From positions 124,001 to 188,000 of the forward strand of contig CAXKVF010000075.1 of assembly GCA_964057225.1 (NCBI GenBank): a stretch of 64,000 bases of DNA, read 5' to 3'. The notes beneath the pieces are model-generated. The model ran no database searches. It had not been told where the DNA came from and saw only the letters and a program-made list of their open reading frames with translations. Positions 3,001 through 40,800 of this stretch are shown here, piece after piece. How positions within the stretch are numbered: the first letter of the stretch is position 1; each line of letters opens with the position of its first letter. This stretch comes from Auanema rhodensis. Taxonomy: Eukaryota > Animalia > Nematoda. The translations under genes were made by a program, and so were the position numbers.

Positions 3001-5402
3001 TCAATAAAAATTTGTTTTTAGACTAATATGGACATGGGGAATCTAATTTTGAAAACCGCATCTCTTTATCTTTCACGTGAAGCGAGTTACATACCAAGTG
3101 CACATCACGTGTACATTTAATTAGCATAAATTAAAGTTCACGTAAATTTCAAAGTCATGGTTACCATGAACCAATATCAATAAAAATTTGTTTTTAGACT
3201 AATATGGACATGGGGAATCTAATTTTGAAAACCGCATCTCTTTATCTTTCACGTGAAGCGAGTTACATACCAAGTGCACATCACGTATACATTTAATTAG
3301 CATAAATTAAAGTTCACGTAAATTTCAAAGTCATGGTTACCATGAACCAATATCAATAAAAATTTGTTTTTAGACTAATATGGACATGGGGAATCTAATT
3401 TTGAAAACCGCATCTCTTTATCTTTCACGTGAAGCGAGTTACATACCAAGTGCACATCACGTGTACATTTAATTAGCATAAATTAAAGTTCACGTAAATT
3501 TCAAAGTCATGGTTACCATGCACCAATATCAATAAAAATTTGTTTTTAGACTAATATGGACATGGGGAATCTAATTTTGAAAACCGCATCTCTTTATCTT
3601 TCACGTGAAGCGAGTTACATACCAAGTGCACATCACGTGTACATTTAATTAGCATAAATTAAAGTTCACGTAAATTTCAAAGTCATGGTTACCATGCACC
3701 AATATCAATAAAAATTTGTTTTTAGACTAATATGGACATGGGGAATCTAATTTTGAAAACCGCATCTCTTCATCTTTCACGTGAAGCGAGTTACATACCA
3801 AGTGCACATCACGTGTACATTTAATTAGCATAAATTAAAGTTCACGTAAATTTCAAAGTCATGGTTACCATGCACCAATATCAATAAAAATTTGTTTTTA
3901 GACTAATATGGACATGGGGAATCTAATTTTGAAAACCGCATCTCTTTATCTTTCACGTGAAGCGAGTTACATACCAAGTGCACATCACGTGTACATTTAA
4001 TTAGCATAAATTAAAGTTCACGTAAATTTCAAAGTCATGGTTACCATGCACCAATATCAATGAAAATTTGTTTTTAGACTAATATGGACATGGGGAATCT
4101 AATTTTGAAAACCGCATCTCTTCATCTTTCACGTGAAGCGAGTTACATACCAAGTGCACTTCACGTGTACATTTAATTAGCATAAATTAAAGTTCACGTA
4201 AATTTCAAAGTTATGGTTACCATGCGCCAATATCAATAAAAATTTGTTTTTAGACTAATATGGACATGGGGAATCTAATTTTGAAAACCGCATCTCTTTA
4301 TCTTTCACGTGAAGCGAGTTACATACCAAGTGCACATCACGTGTACATTTAATTAGCATAAATTAAAGTTCACGTAAATTTCAAAGTCATGGTTACCATG
4401 CACCAATGTCAATAAAAATTTGTTTTTAGACTAATATGGACATGGGGAATCTAATTTTGCAAACCGCATCTCTTCATCTTTCACGTGAAGCGAGTTACAT
4501 ACCAAGTGCACATCACGTGTACATTTAATTAGCATAAATTAAAGTTCACGTAAATTTCAAAGTCATGGTTACCATGCACCAATATCAATAAAAATTTGTT
4601 TTTAGACTAATATGGACATGGGGAATCTAATTTTGAAAACCGCATCTCTTTATCTTTCACGTGAAGCGAGTTACATACCAAGTGCACATTACGTGTACAT
4701 TTAATTAGCATAAATTAAAGTTCACGTAAATTTCAAAGTCATGGTTACCATGAACCAATATCAATAAAAATTTGTTTTTAGACTAATATGGACATGGGGA
4801 ATCTAATTTTGAAAACCGCATCTCTTTATCTTTCACGTGAAGCGAGTTACATACTAAGTGCACATCACGTGTACATTTAATTAGCATAAATTAAAGTTCA
4901 CGTAAATTTCAAAGTCATGGTTACCATGCACCAATATCAATAAAAATTTGTTTTTAGACTAATATGGACATGGGGAATCTAATTTTGAAAACCGCATCTC
5001 TTTATCTTTCACGTGAAGCGAGTTACATACCAAGTGCACATCACGTGTACATTTAATTAGCATAAATTAAAGTTCACGTAAATTTCAAAGTCATGGTTAC
5101 CATGAACCAATATCAATAAAAATTTGTTTTTAGACTAATATGGACATGGGGAATCTAATTTTGAAAACCGCATCTCTTTATCTTTCACGTGAAGCGAGTT
5201 ACATACCAAGTGCACATCACGTGTACATTTAATTAGCATAAATTAAAGTTCACGTAAATTTCAAAGTCATGGTTACCATGCACCAATATCAATAAAAATT
5301 TGTTTTTAAACTAATATGGACATGGGGAATCTAATTTTGAAAACCGCATCTCTTTATCTTTCACGTGAAGCGAGTTACATACCAAGTGCACATCACGTGT
5401 AC
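1..5402 (+). repeat. 176-bp tandem satellite array, left block (30 full monomers plus positions 1-122 of the 31st)
   Basis: The monomer (c/a)accaatatcaataaaaatttgtttttagactaatatggacatggggaatctaattttgaaaaccgcatctctttatctttcacgtgaagcgagttacataccaagtgcacatcacgtgtacatttaattagcataaattaaagttcacgtaaatttcaaagtcatggttaccatg restarts at 1, 177, 353 ... 5281, an exact 176-bp phase with only scattered SNPs. Confidence 0.99.
5395..5402 (+). repeat. Left target-site duplication ACGTGTAC (minimal core GTGTAC, 5397-5402)
   Basis: Satellite sequence ends at ...catcACGTGTAC|cgtaatg. The same 8-mer recurs at 9179-9186. Confidence 0.92.
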
Positions 5403-5855
5403 CGTAATGTCTCTGATCCCGTTCATTTTTATATTGTTCGTGATTTACGTGTTGTTGCTGTTAAAAAACGAGTGCTTCCTAGTTCTATCGTTTCTGTTTC
5501 TCCGGCATGCATTTCTTCATCCCCTGTTCCCATCAACCCTACTGGCACTACTTCTGCTGACTACACAGCTGTTACAACTGTTTCTGAACTCTTACCTAGC
5601 ATATCCAAAAACTCCAATGCTGCACCGGCTTCAAAATCTAGTCGCAAGTCTCTTAGAACAGTCAGATCCAGTAGCTCTATTCCATCTCCTTCGAGAAGAA
5701 AAGTTCGCCCTATTCGTTACTCACTTCGCCCTACACCTTCCTCTCGAGTAAGAAATGCTGTAATAATACAACCTGCACCTCCTAGCGTACAGGGCGATAC
5801 TTCTTCTGGTTCTTCTGTCTCACCCAATTGTCTTTCTTCATTTCGCAAGTCATAG
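5403..5855 (+). CDS. LINE ORF1, C-terminal remnant (5' part lost by truncation): a short hydrophobic/basic segment (FYIVRDLRVVAVKK) followed by a ~130-aa Ser/Pro/Arg-rich low-complexity tail
   Basis: Open from the first base of the element to TAG 5853-5855, directly upstream of and overlapping the ORF2 frame. The ORF track call 5316..5855 borrows its first 29 codons from the satellite. ORF1 identity is inferred from position. Confidence 0.7.
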   Translation, partial: RNVSDPVHFYIVRDLRVVAVKKRVLPSSIVSVSPACISSSPVPINPTGTTSADYTAVTTVSELLPSISKNSNAAPASKSSRKSLRTVRSSSSIPSPSRRKVRPIRYSLRPTPSSRVRNAVIIQPAPPSVQGDTSSGSSVSPNCLSSFRKS

Positions 5856-8688
5856 TTCAATTACTAGCTCTTCTTCCATCACTATATATCTTTGTAATTC
5901 TCGCTCTATTCTCAACAAGTTTTCTCATTTTGATTTAATTTCACAAAAATATGACCCTGATGTTTTATGTTTCACTGAAAGTTGGCTTACTCCTGACGTT
6001 TGTAGTTCTAATTTACCTCTTTCTGCTTCGTATTGTTTGATGCGCTGTGATCGCAATAACAATAGGAGAGGTGGAGGTGTTCTAGTCATGGTTAAAAAAC
6101 ATATCTCAGTCTGTAATTTTAGTTCAGTCTCTTTTGGGGACTTCCTCCAGTTGGTTACATTTTCTATCGTTTCCCATTCCATAAGTCTTTCTATATGTTA
6201 TCGGGCTCCTCGTTGTTCTAATAGTTCTTTCAATTCCTTTCTTCATCATTATTCATCTATTCTTAACACCAGAGAAAAAAACGTGCTTGTTGGGGATTTT
6301 AATTTTCCCGGTATCAACTGGAAGAATTACTCTTTAACTAAATCGTCTCTTCAAGCCAAATGTTTCTTAGAGTTTATTACTTCTTTTTGTTTTACTCAAC
6401 TAGTTAGTTTTCCGACACGCGGTAAGTATACTTTAGATTGTGTGCTTGCGGATACCCCTAGTATGGCCTCAGTTATCGAATGCGTTCCTCCTTTTGGGAC
6501 TTCTGACCACAAATCTTTACTTTTTTCTCTCTCTCGTGATATATTAGATTGCATGAACAGTCCCTCCCGCCCAAAACTTTCTTTGGCATCTTCTTGTACT
6601 GTTTTTTCTGCTGATCATCCAAAGTCGCTTCTCCATAGAAACTTTCATAAAGCCAACTACAATAAAATTAATTTTTTTATTTCATCCATTAATCTGGTTC
6701 AAAGCTTTTCTCACTTAGATCTTTGTGCCGCCTATGAATCATTTGTCTGTTTTCTCAGAGAAATCATTTATACTCATGTTCCCATCATCAGACCTGGTGG
6801 AAAAAAAGTTCGCCTTGCTCGTTCAATATCTATTCTACATGATAATCTCACCAGGTTGTCTAAATGTTTCGGCCTTTCATCGTCGTCTAAATGTCGTACT
6901 CTTTCTCGTCGTTTGAATGCTTTACTCAGACGTCAGCGCGCACTGGATGAAAATAAAATATCTCTTTCCGGTAACCAAAAAGAATTTTACAAATTTTGTC
7001 GTAAACGTTTAGGGGGTACTATTGAAGCATCTTTTTTAAAAAATGGTGACTCTCAAGCTTCGGACTCCTCCACCAAAGCAAAAATTTTTTCGGATCACTT
7101 TTCTCAGACCTCTTTTCTTTCTTCTTCTGGAATATGGCATCACAGTGAAACTCCTAAATTTTCTCCGCTCCAATTTCGCCCGCATTTCATTGATGAACTC
7201 TGCGTTTTCAAACTTTTAAGATCTTTACCTTCTCGAACTTGCTTATCTCCTGATGGCATACCTTATATTTTTCTTAATAAGTGTGCGATTTCTATAGTAC
7301 GTCCTTTGACATTCTTTTTTAATGGTTTTTTATCCTTTGGGGTCTGTCCTAAAAGCTGGAAATCTGCATGGGTCAAACCTATTTATAAATCAGGATGTTC
7401 AAATGACCCTAAGAACTATAGACCCATTTCTCTCACATCTTGTCTCTCCAAAGTGTTTGAGCGCATTATCAGAAAAGACATTCTCAAGCATTTACTTGAT
7501 AATAAGCTAATTTCACCATCTCAACATGGATTTTTACCTGGGCGTAGCACTAGCACTGCGCTTCTCAAAGCTCACTCGCAGTGGAGAATCGCCAAAGAAT
7601 ATCGTAAGGATGTTTCTGTAGCTTTTATTGATTTTTCCAAAGCTTTTGATAAAATTAATCATCGAATTCTGATCAGCAAATTGAACAGTTTCGGAATATC
7701 AGGATCTCTTGCTCTTTTTCTTGAAGACTTTCTTTCCAACCGTTCTTTTGAAGTTGTTCTTGAAGATGCCTTGTCTGAACCCAAAGTTATTGAGTGTGGT
7801 GTCCCTCAAGGTACAGTTCTTGGACCACTACTTTTTTTGCTATATATCAACGATCTCATTTCCTCTTTTCATCGTGGCACTGAGGCTGTTGCCTATGCTG
7901 ATGACATTAAACTTTTTGCCTCATCAAATCAAAGTTTACAATGCTCTCTCCACATTCTTTGTCTCTGGTGCAATTTCAATGACATGGTAGTTAATGTCAA
8001 GAAATCGAAGATTATGATTCTTGGTAATGATAACTCTCATTGCCAGTTTTTACTCAATGATGTTCCTCTTGAAATTGTTGATAATTTCAAAGACCTCGGT
8101 GTTATCATAGATAAAAACTTATCTTTCCGCCCCCATATTCACTCCATCACTTCCATGGCGTCAAAACGCTGTAAGCTTATTCTTAGATGTTTTAATTCTT
8201 CCTGTCCCAAACTCTTATTCAGATTGTTCACCTGTTACGTTAGGCCTATTCTTGAATATGCTTCCGAAGTCTGGTCACCGTTTTTGCTAAAAGATATTCA
8301 ACTTGTTGAAAATGTTCAGAAGCGGTATGTTAATGCTATTTTTTTTCGATCGTCCATGGATATCCACGGATATGATAATAAACTCAAACACCTTCAAGGC
8401 AGGCGTTTAGAAACGAGACGCACTATAGCTGACTTATGTCAATATTTCAAAATCATAAAGAATGGCTCTATTCTTAATGAGTCCGTGCTTAGATCGAAAG
8501 AGCATAACTATATTCTTCGTCAACATGAGTTTATACTGATGCCGCCGGATTACAAAACTGTAGCTGCCCTTTCAAGCTTTGAGAACCGGCAAATCAAAAT
8601 CTGGAATTCACTCAATCCTATTCTAATTGGTATCAATGATTTGTCTGTTTTTCGGAAAGCCTTGAACACATTTATGTTCCCTGTTTAG
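5767..8688 (+). CDS. LINE ORF2 polyprotein: apurinic-like endonuclease plus reverse transcriptase, intact
   Basis: The frame is open from 5767 (after TAA TAA) to TAG 8688, further upstream than the track call at 6037. APE motifs: YLCNSRSILNK (5887-), DVLCFTESWL (5959-), RGGGV, CYRAP, GDFN (6292-6303), SDH (6502-6510). RT motifs: YRPISL (7417-7434), QHGF, DFSKAFD, GVPQG (7798-7812), YADD (7894-7905), DLGV. There are no internal stops or frameshifts. The true start is uncertain because the first in-frame ATG (6040) is inside the endonuclease. Confidence 0.95.
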   Translation, partial: YNLHLLAYRAILLLVLLSHPIVFLHFASHSSITSSSSITIYLCNSRSILNKFSHFDLISQKYDPDVLCFTESWLTPDVCSSNLPLSASYCLMRCDRNNNRRGGGVLVMVKKHISVCNFSSVSFGDFLQLVTFSIVSHSISLSICYRAPRCSNSSFNSFLHHYSSILNTREKNVLVGDFNFPGINWKNYSLTKSSLQAKCFLEFITSFCFTQLVSFPTRGKYTLDCVLADTPSMASVIECVPPFGTSDHKSLLFSLSRDILDCMNSPSRPKLSLASSCTVFSADHPKSLLHRNFHKANYNKINFFISSINLVQSFSHLDLCAAYESFVCFLREIIYTHVPIIRPGGKKVRLARSISILHDNLTRLSKCFGLSSSSKCRTLSRRLNALLRRQRALDENKISLSGNQKEFYKFCRKRLGGTIEASFLKNGDSQASDSSTKAKIFSDHFSQTSFLSSSGIWHHSETPKFSPLQFRPHFIDELCVFKLLRSLPSRTCLSPDGIPYIFLNKCAISIVRPLTFFFNGFLSFGVCPKSWKSAWVKPIYKSGCSNDPKNYRPISLTSCLSKVFERIIRKDILKHLLDNKLISPSQHGFLPGRSTSTALLKAHSQWRIAKEYRKDVSVAFIDFSKAFDKINHRILISKLNSFGISGSLALFLEDFLSNRSFEVVLEDALSEPKVIECGVPQGTVLGPLLFLLYINDLISSFHRGTEAVAYADDIKLFASSNQSLQCSLHILCLWCNFNDMVVNVKKSKIMILGNDNSHCQFLLNDVPLEIVDNFKDLGVIIDKNLSFRPHIHSITSMASKRCKLILRCFNSSCPKLLFRLFTCYVRPILEYASEVWSPFLLKDIQLVENVQKRYVNAIFFRSSMDIHGYDNKLKHLQGRRLETRRTIADLCQYFKIIKNGSILNESVLRSKEHNYILRQHEFILMPPDYKTVAALSSFENRQIKIWNSLNPILIGINDLSVFRKALNTFMFPV
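5838..5846 (+). promoter_or_regulatory. Candidate +1 programmed ribosomal frameshift site UCA_UUU_CGC joining ORF1 to ORF2
   Basis: ORF1-frame codons are TCA TTT CGC AAG TCA TAG. A +1 slip from TTT to TTC enters the ORF2 frame (TTC GCA AGT CAT ...), 13 codons before the endonuclease domain. Matches the UUU_CGN motif. Confidence 0.55.
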
Positions 8689-8998
8689 TTTTTTCTTATA
8701 TTGTCATTGTAGAAAAATTAGCTTGTTTTTCTTTCTTTTTTTCCATAAGCTCATTGATTATTTATATAATTTGTTCATCATATTTTGTCAATTTCTTGTT
8801 AATGACCTATTGGTACACATACATTTTCCTGCATTTTTATTTTTTGCATTTTTATTTTACAGACATTAGTCGTACGAATAAAATGCAGTTACTACACTGT
8901 GCTCAGAACGGGCTTGACTCTCTTTTGAGTTCCACCGCACCTGCCCACAATCAGAGTAGTTCGCTATGATAAGATCTAAGATAAGCGTATATAGATGA

Positions 8999-9033
8999 AT
9001 ATATATATATATATACATATATGTGTGTGTATA
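8999..9033. repeat. (AT)n/(TG)n alternating purine-pyrimidine microsatellite in the 3' UTR
   Basis: atatatatatatatatacatatatgtgtgtgtata. Confidence 0.9.
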
Positions 9034-9161
9034 GTTGGTATGGTCACTTCCACTGCTCTTTTCATTTCTCAGTCTTTTCTTTTTTTAATTATCCACTGTA
9101 AGGTTACATTAAGCATTTCACATGTTGTTGATTCATTTATGTCATAACCTGTGGTGAGATC

Positions 9162-9180
9162 AATAAACAAACAAACAAAC
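9162..9180 (+). terminator. LINE 3' end: AATAAA overlapping an (AAAC)4 tail
   Basis: c-AATAAA-caaacaaacaaac directly abuts the resumed satellite. Short tandem-repeat tails are characteristic of CR1/L2-group LINEs. Confidence 0.88.
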
Positions 9181-9186
9181 GTGTAC
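9179..9186 (+). repeat. Right target-site duplication ACGTGTAC (first AC shared with the tail)
   Basis: ...aaacaa-ACGTGTAC-atttaattagc, identical to 5395-5402. Confidence 0.92.
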
Positions 9187-27100: not shown

Positions 27101-27538
27101 CGAGTTACATACCAAGTGCACATCACGTGTACATTTAATTAGCATAAATTAAAGTTCACGTAAATTTCAAAGTCATGGTTACCATGAAGCAATATCAATA
27201 AAAGTTTGTTTTTAGACTAATATGGACATGGGGAATCTAATTTTGAAAACCGCATCTCTTTATCTTTCACGTGAAGCGAGTTACATACCAAGTGCACATC
27301 ACGTGTACATTTAATTAGCATTAATTAAAGTTCACGTAAATTTCAAAGTCATGGTTACCATGAACCAATATCAATAAAAATTTGTTTTTAGACTAATATG
27401 GACATGGGGAATCTAATTTTGAAAACCGCATCTCTTTATCTTTCACGTGAAGCGAGTTACATACCAAGTGCACATCACGTGTACATTTAATTAGCATTAA
27501 TTAAAGTTCACGTAAATTTCAAAGTCATGGTTACCATG

Positions 27539-27587
27539 AACCAATAAAATTAAAGTTCACGTAAATTTCAAAGTCATGGTTACCATG
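27539..27587 (+). repeat. Truncated 49-bp satellite unit (monomer positions 1-8 joined to 136-176)
   Basis: aaccaata|aaattaaagttcacgtaaatttcaaagtcatggttaccatg; the next full monomer starts at 27588. Confidence 0.93.
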
Positions 27588-30500
27588 AACCAATATCAAT
27601 AAAAATTTGTTTTTAGACTAATATGGACATGGGGAATCTAATTTTGAAAACCGCATCTCTTTATCTTTCACGTGAAGCGAGTTACATACCAAGTGCACAT
27701 CACGTGTACATTTAATTAGCATTAATTAAAGTTCACGTAAATTTCAAAGTCATGGTTACCATGAACCAATATCAATAAAAATTTGTTTTTGACTAATATG
27801 GACATGGGGAATCTAATTTTGAAAACCGCATCTCTTTATCTTTCACGTGAAGCGAGTTACATACCAAGTGCACATCACGTGTACATTTAATTAGCATAAA
27901 TTAAAGTTCACGTAAATTTCAAAGTCATGGTTACCATGAACTAATATCAATAAAAATTTGTTTTTAGACTAATATGGACATGGGGAATCTAATTTTGAAA
28001 ACCGCATCTCTTTATCTTTCACGTGAAGCGAGTTACATACCAAGTGCACATCACGTGTACATTTAATTAGCATTAATTAAAGTTCACGTAAATTTCAAAG
28101 TCATGGTTACCATGAACCAATATCAATAAAAATTTGTTTTTGACTAATATGGACATGGGGAATCTAATTTTGAAAACCGCATCTCTTTATCTTTCACGTG
28201 AAGCGAGTTACATACCAAGTGCACATCACGTGTACATTTAATTAGCATAAATTAAAGTTCACGTAAATTTCAAAGTCATGGTTACCATGAACTAATATCA
28301 ATAAAAATTTGTTTTTAGACTAATATGGACATGGGGAATCTAATTTTGAAAACCGCATCTCTTTATCTTTCACGTGAAGCGAGTTACATACCAAGTGCAC
28401 ATCACGTGTACATTTAATTAGCATAAATTAAAGTTCACGTAAATTTCAAAGTCATGGTTACCATGAAGCAATATCAATAAAAGTTTGTTTTTAGACTAAT
28501 ATGGACATGGGGAATCTAATTTTGAAAACCGCATCTCTTTATCTTTCACGTGAAGCGAGTTACATACCAAGTGCACATCACGTGTACATTTAATTAGCAT
28601 TAATTAAAGTTCACGTAAATTTCAAAGTCATGGTTACCATGAACTAATATCAATAAAAATTTGTTTTTAGACTAATATGGACATGGGGAATCTAATTTTG
28701 AAAACCGCATCTCTTTATCTTTCACGTGAAGCGAGTTACATACCAAGTGCACATCACGTGTACATTTAATTAGCATAAATTAAAGTTCACGTAAATTTCA
28801 AAGTCATGGTTACCATGAACCAATATCAATAAAAATTTGTTTTTAGACTAATATGGACATGGGGAATCTAATTTTGAAAACCGCATCTCTTTATCTTTCA
28901 CGTGAAGCGAGTTACATACCAAGTGCACATCACGTGTACATTTAATTAGCATAAATTAAAGTTCACGGAAATTTCAAAGTCATGGTTACCATGAACCAAT
29001 ATCAATAAAAATTTGTTTTTAGACTAATATGGACATGGGGAATCTAATTTTGAAAACCGCATCTCTTTATCTTTCACGTGAAGCGAGTTACATACCAAGT
29101 GCACATCACGTGTACATTTAATTAGCATAAATTAAAGTTCACGTAAATTTCAAAGTCATGGTTACCATGAACCAATATCAATAAAAATTTGTTTTTAGAC
29201 TAATATGGACATGGGGAATCTAATTTTGAAAACCGCATCTCTTTATCTTTCACGTGAAGCGAGTTACATACCAAGTGCACATCACGTGTACATTTAATTA
29301 GCATAAATTAAAGTTCACGTAAATTTCAAAGTCATGGTTACCATGAACCAATATCAATAAAAATTTGTTTTTAGACTAATATGGACATGGGGAATCTAAT
29401 TTTGAAAACCGCATCTCTTTATCTTTCACGTGAAGCGAGTTACATACCAAGTGCACATCACGTGTACATTTAATTAGCATAAATTAAAGTTCACGTAAAT
29501 TTCAAAGTCATGGTTACCATGAACTAATATCAATAAAAATTTGTTTTTAGACTAATATGGACATGGGGAATCTAATTTTGAAAACCGCATCTCTTTATCT
29601 TTCACGTGAAGCGAGTTACATACCAAGTGCACATCACGTGTACATTTAATTAGCATAAATTAAAGTTCACGTAAATTTCAAAGTCATGGTTACCATGAAG
29701 CAATATCAATAAAAGTTTGTTTTTAGACTAATATGGACATGGGGAATCTAATTTTGAAAACCGCATCTCTTTATCTTTCACGTGAAGCGAGTTACATACC
29801 AAGTGCACATCACGTGTACATTTAATTAGCATTAATTAAAGTTCACGTAAATTTCAAAGTCATGGTTACCATGAACTAATATCAATAAAAATTTGTTTTT
29901 AGACTAATATGGACATGGGGAATCTAATTTTGAAAACCGCATCTCTTTATCTTTCACGTGAAGCGAGTTACATACCAAGTGCACATCACGTGTACATTTA
30001 ATTAGCATAAATTAAAGTTCACGTAAATTTCAAAGTCATGGTTACCATTAACCAATATCAATAAAAATTTGTTTTTAGACTAATATGGACATGGGGAATC
30101 TAATTTTGAAAACCGCATCTCTTTATCTTTCACGTGAAGCGAGTTACATACCAAGTGCACATCACGTGTACATTTAATTAGCATAAATTAAAGTTCACGG
30201 AAATTTCAAAGTCATGGTTACCATGAACCAATATCAATAAAAATTTGTTTTTAGACTAATATGGACATGGGGAATCTAATTTTGAAAACCGCATCTCTTT
30301 ATCTTTCACGTGAAGCGAGTTACATACCAAGTGCACATCACGTGTACATTTAATTAGCATAAATTAAAGTTCACGTAAATTTCAAAGTCATGGTTACCAT
30401 GAACCAATATCAATAAAAATTTGTTTTTAGACTAATATGGACATGGGGAATCTAATTTTGAAAACCGCATCTCTTTATCTTTCACGTGAAGCGAGTTACA

Positions 30501-36500: not shown

Positions 36501-37791
36501 TGTACATTTAATTAGCATAAATTAAAGTTCACGTAAATTTCAAAGTCATGGTTACCATGAACCAATATCAATAAAAATTTGTTTTTAGACTAATATGGAC
36601 ATGGGGAATCTAATTTTGAAAACCGCATCTCTTTATCTTTCACGTGAAGCGAGTTACATACCAAGTGCACATCACGTGTACATTTAATTAGCATAAATTA
36701 AAGTTCACGTAAATTTCAAAGTCATGGTTACCATGAACCAATATCAATGAAAATTTGTTTTTAGACTAATATGGACATGGGGAATCTAATTTTGAAAACC
36801 GCATTTCTTTATCTTTCACGTGAAGCGAGTTACATACCAAGTGCACATCACGTGTACATTTAATTAGCATAAATTAAAGTTCACGTAAAATTCAAAGTCA
36901 TGGTTACCATGAACCAATATCAATAAAAATTTGTTTTTAGACTAATATGGACATGGGGAATCTAATTTTGAAAACCGCATCTCTTTATCTTTCACGTGAA
37001 GCGAGTTACATACCAAGTGCACATCACGTGTACATTTAATTAGCATAAATTAAAGTTCACGTAAATTTCAAAGTCATGGTTACCATGAACTAATATCAAT
37101 AAAAATTTGTTTTTAGACTAATATGGACATGGGGAATCTAATTTTGAAAACCGCATCTCTTTATCTTTCACGTGAAGCGAGTTACATACCAAGTGCACAT
37201 CACGTGTACATTTAATTAGCATAAATTAAAGTTCACGTAAATTTCAAAGTCATGGTTACCATGAACCAATATCAATAAAAATTTGTTTTTAGACTAATAT
37301 GGACATGGGGAATCTAATTTTGAAAACCGCATCTCTTTATCTTTTACGTGAAGCGAGTTACATACCAAGTGCACATCACGTGTACATTTAATTAGCATAA
37401 ATTAAAGTTCACGTAAATTTCAAAGTCATGGTTACCATGAAGCAATATCAATAAAAGTTTGTTTTTAGACTAATATGGACATGGGGAATCTAATTTTGAA
37501 AACCGCATCTCTTTATCTTTCACGTGAAGCGAGTTACATACCAAGTGCACATCACGTGTACATTTAATTAGCATTAATTAAAGTTCACGTAAATTTCAAA
37601 GTCATGGTTACCATGAACCAATATCAATAAAAATTTGTTTTTAGACTAATATGGACATGGGGAATCTAATTTTGAAAACCGCATCTCTTTATCTTTCACG
37701 TGAAGCGAGTTACATACCAAGTGCACATCACGTGTACATTTAATTAGCATTAATTAAAGTTCACGTAAATTTCAAAGTCATGGTTACCATG

Positions 37792-37840
37792 AACCAATAA
37801 AATTAAAGTTCACGTAAATTTCAAAGTCATGGTTACCATG
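37792..37840 (+). repeat. Second copy of the truncated 49-bp satellite unit
   Basis: Same junction as 27539-27587; the next monomer starts at 37841. Confidence 0.93.
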
Positions 37841-40800
37841 AACCAATATCAATAAAAATTTGTTTTTAGACTAATATGGACATGGGGAATCTAATTTTGA
37901 AAACCGCATCTCTTTATCTTTCACGTGAAGCGAGTTACATACCAAGTGCACATCACGTGTACATTTAATTAGCATTAATTAAAGTTCACGTAAATTTCAA
38001 AGTCATGGTTACCATGAACCAATATCAATAAAAATTTGTTTTTGACTAATATGGACATGGGGAATCTAATTTTGAAAACCGCATCTCTTTATCTTTCACG
38101 TGAAGCGAGTTACATACCAAGTGCACATCACGTGTACATTTAATTAGCATAAATTAAAGTTCACGTAAATTTCAAAGTCATGGTTACCATGAACTAATAT
38201 CAATAAAAATTTGTTTTTAGACTAATATGGACATGGGGAATCTAATTTTGAAAACCGCATCTCTTTATCTTTCACGTGAAGCGAGTTACATACCAAGTGC
38301 ACATCACGTGTACATTTAATTAGCATTAATTAAAGTTCACGTAAATTTCAAAGTCATGGTTACCATGAACCAATATCAATAAAAATTTGTTTTTGACTAA
38401 TATGGACATGGGGAATCTAATTTTGAAAACCGCATCTCTTTATCTTTCACGTGAAGCGAGTTACATACCAAGTGCACATCACGTGTACATTTAATTAGCA
38501 TAAATTAAAGTTCACGTAAATTTCAAAGTCATGGTTACCATGAACTAATATCAATAAAAATTTGTTTTTAGACTAATATGGACATGGGGAATCTAATTTT
38601 GAAAACCGCATCTCTTTATCTTTCACGTGAAGCGAGTTACATACCAAGTGCACATCACGTGTACATTTAATTAGCATAAATTAAAGTTCACGTAAATTTC
38701 AAAGTCATGGTTACCATGAAGCAATATCAATAAAAGTTTGTTTTTAGACTAATATGGACATGGGGAATCTAATTTTGAAAACCGCATCTCTTTATCTTTC
38801 ACGTGAAGCGAGTTACATACCAAGTGCACATCACGTGTACATTTAATTAGCATTAATTAAAGTTCACGTAAATTTCAAAGTCATGGTTACCATGAACTAA
38901 TATCAATAAAAATTTGTTTTTAGACTAATATGGACATGGGGAATCTAATTTTGAAAACCGCATCTCTTTATCTTTCACGTGAAGCGAGTTACATACCAAG
39001 TGCACATCACGTGTACATTTAATTAGCATAAATTAAAGTTCACGTAAATTTCAAAGTCATGGTTACCATGAACCAATATCAATAAAAATTTGTTTTTAGA
39101 CTAATATGGACATGGGGAATCTAATTTTGAAAACCGCATCTCTTTATCTTTCACGTGAAGCGAGTTACATACCAAGTGCACATCACGTGTACATTTAATT
39201 AGCATAAATTAAAGTTCACGGAAATTTCAAAGTCATGGTTACCATGAACCAATATCAATAAAAATTTGTTTTTAGACTAATATGGACATGGGGAATCTAA
39301 TTTTGAAAACCGCATCTCTTTATCTTTCACGTGAAGCGAGTTACATACCAAGTGCACATCACGTGTACATTTAATTAGCATAAATTAAAGTTCACGTAAA
39401 TTTCAAAGTCATGGTTACCATGAACCAATATCAATAAAAATTTGTTTTTAGACTAATATGGACATGGGGAATCTAATTTTGAAAACCGCATCTCTTTATC
39501 TTTCACGTGAAGCGAGTTACATACCAAGTGCACATCACGTGTACATTTAATTAGCATAAATTAAAGTTCACGTAAATTTCAAAGTCATGGTTACCATGAA
39601 CCAATATCAATAAAAATTTGTTTTTAGACTAATATGGACATGGGGAATCTAATTTTGAAAACCGCATCTCTTTATCTTTCACGTGAAGCGAGTTACATAC
39701 CAAGTGCACATCACGTGTACATTTAATTAGCATAAATTAAAGTTCACGTAAATTTCAAAGTCATGGTTACCATGAACTAATATCAATAAAAATTTGTTTT
39801 TAGACTAATATGGACATGGGGAATCTAATTTTGAAAACCGCATCTCTTTATCTTTCACGTGAAGCGAGTTACATACCAAGTGCACATCACGTGTACATTT
39901 AATTAGCATAAATTAAAGTTCACGTAAATTTCAAAGTCATGGTTACCATGAAGCAATATCAATAAAAGTTTGTTTTTAGACTAATATGGACATGGGGAAT
40001 CTAATTTTGAAAACCGCATCTCTTTATCTTTCACGTGAAGCGAGTTACATACCAAGTGCACATCACGTGTACATTTAATTAGCATTAATTAAAGTTCACG
40101 TAAATTTCAAAGTCATGGTTACCATGAACTAATATCAATAAAAATTTGTTTTTAGACTAATATGGACATGGGGAATCTAATTTTGAAAACCGCATCTCTT
40201 TATCTTTCACGTGAAGCGAGTTACATACCAAGTGCACATCACGTGTACATTTAATTAGCATAAATTAAAGTTCACGTAAATTTCAAAGTCATGGTTACCA
40301 TTAACCAATATCAATAAAAATTTGTTTTTAGACTAATATGGACATGGGGAATCTAATTTTGAAAACCGCATCTCTTTATCTTTCACGTGAAGCGAGTTAC
40401 ATACCAAGTGCACATCACGTGTACATTTAATTAGCATAAATTAAAGTTCACGGAAATTTCAAAGTCATGGTTACCATGAACCAATATCAATAAAAATTTG
40501 TTTTTAGACTAATATGGACATGGGGAATCTAATTTTGAAAACCGCATCTCTTTATCTTTCACGTGAAGCGAGTTACATACCAAGTGCACATCACGTGTAC
40601 ATTTAATTAGCATAAATTAAAGTTCACGTAAATTTCAAAGTCATGGTTACCATGAACCAATATCAATAAAAATTTGTTTTTAGACTAATATGGACATGGG
40701 GAATCTAATTTTGAAAACCGCATCTCTTTATCTTTCACGTGAAGCGAGTTACATACCAAGTGCACATCACGTGTACATTTAATTAGCATAAATTAAAGTT

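Follow-up and report, generated by a model that had tools for sequence, protein, structure and literature searches.

A putative +1 ribosomal frameshift at the ORF1-ORF2 junction of a CR1-like LINE, and geometry-matched recoding signals among its distant relatives

The window analyzed here, a stretch of 64,000 nucleotides of Auanema rhodensis DNA, holds a single copy of a CR1-like LINE (one match by self-BLAST), and its features are listed in Table 1. The element shows several traits of CR1-group LINEs, namely an N-terminal APE endonuclease joined to a reverse transcriptase (RT), a short-repeat tail, 5' truncation and a target-site duplication. We take it to be CR1-like from its motifs and RT matches, as the trees included no named CR1 reference. 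The nearest named match was an RT protein of Caenorhabditis brenneri, the position of the window RT was unstable (support of 0.92 in one tree and 0.47 in another), and none of the relatives in protein searches exceeded 37-38% identity. The endonuclease profile matched the L1 and TRAS1 endonuclease structures, and a PDB search with the single sequence gave no match. ORF2 matched three Pfam families at E<=1, none of them RNase H, and Pfam revealed no protease domain in the element. The region 9080-9178 of the 3' UTR folds weakly (-12.7 kcal/mol, a single fold without shuffle control).

The upstream remnant is probably the end of ORF1, an assignment that rests on its position and on a by-eye match of FYIVRDL to VFIVRDL and VYVVKDL in two relatives. 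It had no match in Pfam, in the homolog search for longer proteins, in the ESM Atlas or against the ORF1 of one surveyed locus (L005), and against the ORF1 profile of the relatives it did not rise above shuffles (rank 18 of 201). No ORF1 start lies inside the insert, a caveat absent from the first-pass annotation; contigs of sister copies extend 259-852 nt further 5'. The window copy lacks its 5' end, and with it the part of ORF1 in which the PHD or esterase domain of CR1-group elements would be sought; any mechanism proposed here concerns its full-length parents.

Table 1. Features of the element and of its ORF1-ORF2 junction (window positions)
Feature	Position	Strand	Remark or basis
5' target-site duplication ACGTGTAC, 7-8 bp	5395..5402	+	First A ambiguous with tail; sequence
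5'-truncated CR1-like LINE, 3776 bp	5403..9178	+	Inserted within 176-bp satellite array
ORF1 3' remnant (putative), 150 codons, Ser/Pro/Arg-rich tail	5403..5855	+	TAG at 5853-5855
Mini-ORF ATG CTG TAA TAA, ORF2 frame	5755..5766	+	Closes ORF2 frame 5' of 5767; no difference listed in variant B
ORF1/ORF2 overlap, 89 nt, ORF2 in +1 frame	5767..5855	+	No gap in sister contigs
ORF2 open frame, 973 aa, intact	5767..8688	+	ORF scan; Pfam EN and RVT_1
Near-cognate CTG, ORF2 frame, rival start	5773..5775	+	A at -3; sequence
TCT TCT, in variant B in-frame UUU_U (5812 C>T)	5811..5816	+	Contigs
Candidate +1 shift site UCA_UUU_CGC, P-site UUU to UUC	5838..5846	+	Sequence; identical 9 nt in L203
Near-cognate ATT, ORF2 frame, rival reinitiation start	5860..5862	+	4 nt past ORF1 stop; sequence
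APE endonuclease domain	5878..6552	+	Pfam PF03372/PF14529; Asn 5896, Glu 5977 and first ATG 6040 within
Reverse transcriptase domain RVT_1 (PF00078)	7393..8076	+	aa 543-770, E 1e-38
3' UTR with (AAAC)n tail at end	8689..9178	+	Sequence
3' target-site duplication	9179..9186	+	Sequence

The first-pass annotation had described an ORF2 frame that opens at 5767, lies +1 to ORF1 and has its first ATG beyond essential endonuclease residues, with ORF1 ending in the codons TCA TTT CGC AAG TCA TAG (5838-5855). All of its coordinates held on recheck. The Asn of the N-x-R-S motif and the Glu of TESWL are both encoded upstream of that ATG, their columns are invariant in 20/20 aligned endonucleases, and the Asn column aligns with residue 14 of the L1 endonuclease. 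A zero-frame UUU_CGN, followed by an open +1 frame, is present at 5841-5846, and TTTCG occurs nowhere else in 5404-5900. The E-site codon is UCA and not the UCC of PA-X, a codon that stimulates the PA-X shift but is outside the amalgavirus consensus. An in-frame TTTCG would be found in the overlap by chance in 2.5-5% of cases from codon or base frequencies and in 6% of composition-keeping shuffles with both frames open, while a plain UUU_C appeared in 33% of shuffles. Likewise, a run of 44 codons without Met has an expectation of 61% from the Met frequency of the ORF. With chance rates of 6% and 61%, neither the motif nor the missing AUG is strong alone.

We regard it as probable that low-level +1 slippage of tRNA-Phe yields an ORF1-ORF2 fusion. 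A ribosome with tRNA-Phe on UUU_C (5841-5844) would slip one base forward, three codons before the ORF1 stop, and the AUG-less ORF2 would be made as part of this rare fusion. The majority of ribosomes would terminate at 5853 and release ORF1p alone, giving a ratio like that of Gag to Gag-Pol. We infer that ribosomes shift at all, and that they do so at 5841 rather than at another site; the rate would be near 1% by analogy with PA-X as it is described in PMC3498833, and the fusion, with its Ser-rich linker F/ASHSSITSSSS, would act as a working endonuclease-reverse transcriptase. Downstream RNA structure was not found at the shift site (z +1.29), which we count in favor of the slip, as in PA-X, for which the account in PMC5009743 describes no evident stimulator. 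A -1 frameshift does not fit the window junction, whose geometry is +1 and whose overlap contains no X_XXY_YYZ heptamer. Long-range pairing between the junction and the 3' end was considered and rejected, as there was no exact complement of at least 9 nt and the best 3'-UTR duplex ranked 5th, 6th and 22nd of 158.

We then compared the junction with contigs of sister copies, where a copy-specific indel or an in-frame AUG had been named as findings that would speak against a frameshift. No gap or indel was present at 5404-6685 in any contig of runs X1, X2, X3 or X5, which come from three studies, and no new in-frame ATG was found at the junction in contigs from the three studies; thus the junction is not a copy-specific break. 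That ORF1 and ORF2 were once one frame, split in this copy or lineage by a single inserted base or by a mistake in sequencing, is largely refuted and in our opinion hardly credible. Removal of a single T from TTT would bring the two into one frame, and locus L128 of our survey shows such a copy-specific shift (+1 in a family that is mostly -1), but the contigs, drawn from three studies and labelled with three organisms, contain no indel even in a variant diverged by 8%, ORF2 is intact over 973 codons, and no CR1-like protein of fused length (about 1300 aa) was seen among the best 150 representatives.

TTT CGC was identical in every contig that spans it, a constancy that is uninformative between variants because it concerns 6 nt at about 8% divergence. 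In variant B (runs X3, X5 and X9, all of one study), whose contig depth equals or exceeds that of the window type, 5839 C>A creates a TAA at 5838-5840, one codon 5' of the shift site, and therefore ORF1 ribosomes cannot reach UUU_CGC in B. The same contig carries a new in-frame UUU_U at 5811, which might serve B as a replacement slip site ahead of its stop; with UUU_Y turning up in 58% of shuffles, this gain is not significant. The ten substitutions in the overlap gave no signal of selection for either frame, the synonymous ones numbering 3/10 for ORF1 (2.9 expected) and 4/10 for ORF2 (3.4 expected). Further downstream, most of 23 differences at 5925-7400 split the window and X1 from the contigs of all other runs; nine were synonymous against 5.5 expected, which says nothing on variant B. 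Contigs of X10 cover 5927-6052 only, and a third family in X3, X5 and X9 matches 5950-5989 only. The change 5855 G>A turns the ORF1 stop of B from TAG to TAA and keeps it at 5853. This also removes the AG at 5854-5855, an example of the acceptor that would be needed if a spliced RNA joined an upstream AUG-bearing exon to the junction. Such splicing, to which the pyrimidine-rich tract before CATAG (5851-5855) might point, is very improbable, and the DNA contigs showed no joint near the junction of the kind that reverse-transcribed spliced RNA could leave.

Variant B also bears on another explanation, in which ORF2 is a separate protein made by ribosomes that terminate and reinitiate without an AUG, AUU 5860 being the simplest start and CUG 5773 another, and UUU_CGC is incidental. 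B lists no difference at either near-cognate codon and retains the stop at 5853, its early stop needs no special account on this reading, and the 6% chance rate of the motif suits an incidental sequence. Initiation at AUU 5860 would place the conserved Asn at residue 13, close to its place in L1 ORF2p, whose initiation is thought to be AUG-independent in the account of PMC5009743; SART1 is likewise described as reinitiating (PMC10275272). However, AUU 5860 sits in a poor context (U at -3, A at +4), a start at CUG 5773 would oblige the ribosome to travel back some 80 nt from the stop, and coupling of the SART1 type was not seen, as there is no AUG near the ORF1 stop and no stable downstream fold. 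Nor does reinitiation predict the geometry-matched slip and leaky-stop signals that we found in relatives. We consider it unlikely, yet the main rival to the slip.

These signals come from a survey in which 152 of 357 sequences passed the filters and 205 failed those for intactness. The 152 formed 84 families at <60% identity, window included. All of the 83 distant families are 25-42% identical to the window, with no close family among them, and 28/84 have no upstream ORF. Neither the window nor any non-overlapping junction or ORF1 remnant shorter than 150 aa entered the junction tests, and L126 replaced L128, most copies of whose family read -1, as representative. Four loci (L096, L134, L199 and L203) are not independent because all lie in one genome bin (G003). 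When 201 genomes of the family to which G003 belongs were scanned, no further locus appeared; a single-protein genome scan gave none, and three scans of viral contigs yielded 0, 4 (all weak) and 0.

The signals followed the geometry of the junction. Among twelve +1-overlap families, an in-frame UUU_C was present in five, where ORF bodies predict 1.34 (P 0.005) and shuffles 1.25 (P 0.002), while UUU_Y was present in seven (2.1-2.3 expected) and a -1 heptamer in none, it being understood that the motifs were picked after the first loci had been examined and that shuffles ignore run bias. Among -1-overlap families, slippery heptamers occurred in 10/17 (2.0-3.0 expected) and UUU_C in 1/17. Where a single stop separates two in-frame ORFs, it was UGA_C or UAG_G, both leaky contexts (PMC3542737), in 15/17 junctions; of the ORF1 stops of overlapping families, 4/30 were of these kinds (Fisher P 5e-7). 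In sets fetched later, UUU_Y was found in 4/6 +1 families (1.26 expected, P 0.017); the counts for UUU_C (2/6, P 0.21) and for -1 heptamers (1/6, P 0.53) constitute weak replication. Distant relatives thus appear to mirror the proposed route with slip or stop-readthrough signals suited to their own geometry. A preference for terminal Phe in the protein could mimic the UUU signal. The matched signals were as common in families with an ORF2 AUG (16/23) as in those without (16/23), an in-frame AUG precedes the endonuclease in all five families with UUU_C, and of two AUG-less +1 relatives one has UUU_U and the other no motif.

What is enriched in +1 families is UUU_C or UUU_Y, and UUU_CGN is not supported as the conserved motif. 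UUU_CG was found in 2/12 +1 families (P 0.04-0.05), and in 1/9 (P 0.1-0.2) of a post hoc subset without L054, L322 and L323. The instance in L322 is probably due to chance, because that locus has an AUG at the start of the endonuclease and the motif lies inside a Cys knuckle. The other, L203, is a distant family whose ORF1 is PHD-like and overlaps ORF2 by 80 nt in the +1 geometry; this ORF1 ends TCA TTT CGC CAC TAA. In favor of slippage on UUU, the ORF1s of L199 and L170 likewise close with UUU directly before the stop. Three +1 families that are AUG-less or have an upstream AUG (L050, L107 and L195, overlaps of 11-68 nt) contain no UUU_Y, which could suggest that a +1 (or -2) shift yields the fusion elsewhere in the 89-nt overlap of the window, for example at CUU_U 5832 or at the stop itself. 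The overlap is indeed pyrimidine-rich, with several Ser and Leu codons able to re-pair, but UUU is the enriched codon in +1 relatives and CTT 5832 is CTC in variant B, and we find a site elsewhere very improbable.

Slippage at UUU_C 5841 is the reading that we prefer, with the stop of variant B, the UCA in the E site and the rarity of CGN in relatives counted against it. The first-pass interpretation is partly supported: the +1 fusion gains from the geometry-matched signals of distant families and from the same UCA_UUU_CGC in L203, and UUU_CGN itself does not. The view that such a fusion would be unusual is not supported, since 32/84 families have no ORF2 AUG and +1 frameshifting had already been proposed for Paramecium non-LTR elements (PMC5405496). 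More broadly, CR1-group LINEs may widely make a Gag-Pol-like ORF1-ORF2 fusion, swapping -1 slippage, stop readthrough and +1 UUU_C slippage with junction geometry, and the window element would be an instance, in a cellular retrotransposon, of the UUU_CGN site of PA-X and amalgaviruses; we advance this tentatively, our opinion being almost evenly divided and leaning slightly against. LINE ORF2 translation is presented in PMC3894237 as an open and important question, and the discussion in PMC3498833 leaves open the cellular use of a UUU_CGN-type +1 motif. If the proposal is true, some LINE reverse transcriptases would be born joined to an RNA-packaging protein, the viral +1 motif would extend to a cellular element, and many AUG-less or apparently frameshifted CR1 copies would be intact and mis-annotated; a +1 fusion could also account in part for cis preference and for the low ORF2:ORF1 ratio. 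The junction, under 150 nt, is compact enough for a reporter series of fusion versus reinitiation.

As described in PMC5009743 for mammalian L1 and in PMC3894237 for the UAAUG coupling of SART1, these elements share with ours a bicistronic LINE RNA and rare ORF2 synthesis. In both, however, ORF2 has an AUG, located at the ORF1 stop or beyond it, and ORF2p is a separate protein, whereas the window element is AUG-less and its frames overlap. The 2A (StopGo) peptides reported in CR1/L2-type LINEs (PMC3894237; PMC3708506), and present in several of our surveyed loci, are also a virus-like recoding just upstream of the APE, but they act within one frame and mostly in elements without ORF1; the NPGP motif is absent before the window endonuclease. 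In Paramecium tetraurelia, ORF2 of non-LTR Groups 1-2 was proposed to be made by +1 frameshifting or reinitiation and that of Group 3 by readthrough (PMC5405496). Like ours these are APE-RT LINEs with a proposed recoding for ORF2, yet they form a separate ciliate clade, two of them have overlaps of 11 nt, and the shift was, in that account, proposed without test. The +1 frameshifting of Ty1 and Ty3 Gag-Pol is named in PMC3498833. Their shift codons differ from the UUU_C of the window element. Both are LTR elements whose protease cleaves the fusion, and in the element studied here no protease domain was found; what they would share with it is a structural ORF fused to the polymerase ORF by a +1 shift that sets their ratio. 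The closest resemblance is to the shift sites UCC_UUU_CGU of influenza A PA-X (PMC3498833) and UUU_CGN of amalgaviruses (PMC5052127). The window element is a cellular retrotransposon known from sequence alone, its E-site codon is UCA versus UCC in PA-X, its overlap is 89 nt versus the 287-968 nt described for amalgaviruses, and few of its +1 relatives have CGN after UUU. Nevertheless, it shares with PA-X and the amalgaviruses an in-frame UUU_CGN within the overlap of ORF1 and ORF2, an open +1 frame and the lack of downstream structure, and with the amalgaviruses a polymerase ORF that is needed in small amounts.

The window is an array of a 176-bp satellite interrupted by a single LINE, which is flanked by a target-site duplication of 7-8 bp and ends in (AAAC)n at its 3' side. 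Based on its architecture and its matches, among which the closest named one is a Caenorhabditis brenneri reverse transcriptase (RT) protein, the element appears to be CR1-like; its position was unstable between trees. The ORF1 frame is open across the first 150 codons of the insert and ends with TCA TTT CGC AAG TCA TAG, and ORF2 lies in the +1 frame relative to it with an overlap of 89 nt. The first-pass annotation had described this junction exactly, including the placement of the earliest ORF2 ATG beyond two invariant endonuclease residues. Since the ORF1 frame extends back into the adjoining satellite, where in-frame ATGs lie, satellite transcription could supply a start for the truncated copy.

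Coordinates of the element and its surroundings in the window
Feature	Position	Remark
Satellite array	1-64000, minus LINE	~363 copies of 176 bp, 92% matches
Variant satellite units	near 27323-27771 and 37576-38024	225 bp
ORF1 frame within satellite	5310-5402	in-frame ATGs at 5316 and 5322
LINE	5403-9178	
ORF2 frame	5767-8688	APE endonuclease and RT; no RNase H encoded
Candidate site UUU_CGC	5841-5846	
AUU	5860	4 nt past ORF1 stop
Invariant Asn	5896	
Invariant Glu	5977	
Earliest ORF2 ATG	6040	
Segment omitted in X2, X3, X5	6887-7183	295 nt omitted, one A gained

We infer that ribosomes finishing ORF1 would occasionally slip +1, tRNA-Phe re-pairing from UUU to UUC near the end of ORF1, and that translation would then reach the endonuclease by way of a short Ser-rich linker, yielding an ORF1-ORF2 fusion. 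We consider this reading, with its putative site, its presumed rate and the presumed activity of the fusion, the probable one. An in-frame TTTCG anywhere in the overlap is expected at 2.5-5% from frequencies and occurred in 6% of shuffles that kept composition and both open frames; UUU_C alone is expected in 33% of the same shuffles, and absence of Met ahead of the motif at 61%. Relatives must carry the case.

The LINE was present in eleven sequencing runs from three studies, and contigs of six were compared (X1, X2, X3 and X5 over 5404-7400; X3, X5, X9 and X10 over 5690-6070). No contig of these six runs had a gap 5' of 6686, and no new in-frame ATG upstream of the endonuclease occurred among the listed differences. 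The site is spanned by window-type contigs in four runs (X1, X2, X3, X5), and the source sample may be among them. An indel peculiar to this copy, raised in the first-pass annotation, is thus very improbable. A second junction type, variant B, was found in X3, X5 and X9, all from one study. It differs from the window at 16 of 188 nt in the 5737-5894 stretch (14 of the 16 are listed) and at none in 5895-6070, and it retains TTT CGC, with a stop likewise at 5853. Variant B shows that the +1 arrangement without an AUG did not arise as an error in one copy. Its 5839 C>A change creates a stop one codon upstream of the motif, so UUU_CGC is unable to serve every abundant variant. On the contig that bears the 5839 stop, a 5812 C>T change also yields an in-frame UUU_U. 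Upstream of 5737 the sequence of variant B is unlike that of the window and, as read by hand over the 10 codons available, is open in the ORF1 frame; variant B appears to be either a chimera carrying a different ORF1 or the product of a 5' replacement. Omission of the segment in X2, X3 and X5, with its added A, keeps the frame and removes 98 codons net between endonuclease and RT. The depth of this skip in X5 (129) matches that of variant B (130), which suggests, but falls short of proving, a deleted subfamily, probably non-autonomous, with B as a passenger.

For distant relatives, 356 loci were collected from metagenomes and genome bins, with no close family with readable DNA among them. Requiring that the endonuclease start be intact and the frame long kept 152 of 357 sequences (window included), grouped into 84 families at <60% identity. 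Many prokaryote bins contained dozens of intact LINE-bearing contigs (L085-L164, G003, G004, G006, G241), which are most likely misbinned eukaryotic DNA. Most families are single contigs, and a U-run indel is possible in any one of them; the G241 family shows its site repeated in nine loci. Motifs were chosen after the first loci had been seen, and later-fetched loci were scored separately. An AUG ahead of the endonuclease was missing in 32 of the 84 families, so that an AUG-less ORF2 is a common trait.

The type of putative signal at the junctions follows the geometry. Among -1 overlaps, the heptamer X_XXY_YYZ stood in the ORF1 frame in 10 of 17, where ORF bodies predict 2.0 and shuffles 3.0, and UUU_C in one. 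The twelve +1 overlaps showed no -1 heptamer, UUU_C in five (expected 1.3), UUU_Y in seven (expected 2.1-2.3; one bin supplies four of these) and UUU_CG in two (expected 0.4). Single-stop in-frame junctions carried UGA_C or UAG_G in 15/17 cases versus 4/30 control stops. In the later-fetched loci, UUU_Y recurred in four of six +1 junctions (P 0.017) and all ten single-stop junctions were of the leaky type; UUU_C (2/6, +1) and heptamers (1/6, -1) fell short of significance. Geometry-matched signals were equally frequent with and without an AUG (16/23 each), and an in-frame AUG stood upstream in each of the five UUU_C families.

Several motifs recurred: UGA_CUA/CUC/CA (L301, L306, L307, L308, L088, L030, L078) and UAG_GAC_A (L115, L220, L225, L245) at one-stop in-frame junctions, and U_UUU_UUA, which several unrelated families (L008, L143, L116, L136, L140, L284) have in the ORF1 frame within a -1 overlap. 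In the multi-copy G241 family (L123, L126, L331, L332, L334, L335, L337, L338, L340), of -1 geometry, the ORF1 stop is directly preceded by U_UUA_AAC, the coronavirus-type heptamer. Single-ORF relatives bear a 2A-like NPGP upstream of the endonuclease (L016, L023, L056, L063, L072, L100, L152, L212, L215, L226, L230, L233, L236, L250). The ORF1 C-termini LNPSAAPFP (L005:620-660) and LNAAVQSFVP (L088) presumably resemble the PABP-binding PAM2 motif, and such tails may confound counts of Phe codons.

Concerning UUU_CG itself, ORF1 of L203 ends with TCA TTT CGC CAC TAA in an 80-nt +1 overlap. The UUU_CGG of L322 was taken as chance because it lies within a Cys knuckle, in a family whose endonuclease start bears an AUG. 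Of the mechanism first claimed, the +1 slip on UUU_C is the better bet, and the CGN part of the motif stays a conjecture, one of its two +1 families probably having it by chance. The main rival, less probable, is AUG-independent reinitiation, for example at the AUU just past the ORF1 stop, which would give an N-terminus of nearly L1 length; its AUG is thought dispensable for L1 ORF2 (PMC5009743). A +1 fusion through another shift site is unlikely, and production of ORF2 through splicing marginally more so.

Frameshifting was reportedly proposed long ago for R1-clade elements. For CR1-group LINEs we found neither UUU_CGN nor recoding matched to junction geometry in the literature searched; as most subscription papers and repeat-database notes lay outside it, the evidence for novelty is weak. 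In RNA viruses, UUU_CGN is an established or a proposed site of +1 shifting (PMC3498833, PMC5052127); +1 frameshifting or reinitiation, and also readthrough, were proposed for Paramecium non-LTR elements from consensus sequences (PMC5405496), HeT-A requires a frameshift within gag, and LINEs include 2A peptides (PMC3894237). Neither pairing with the LINE 3' end nor downstream RNA structure was predicted at the junction; in the latter respect it is like influenza PA-X, where such a site shifts at ~1% without downstream structure (PMC3498833, PMC5009743).
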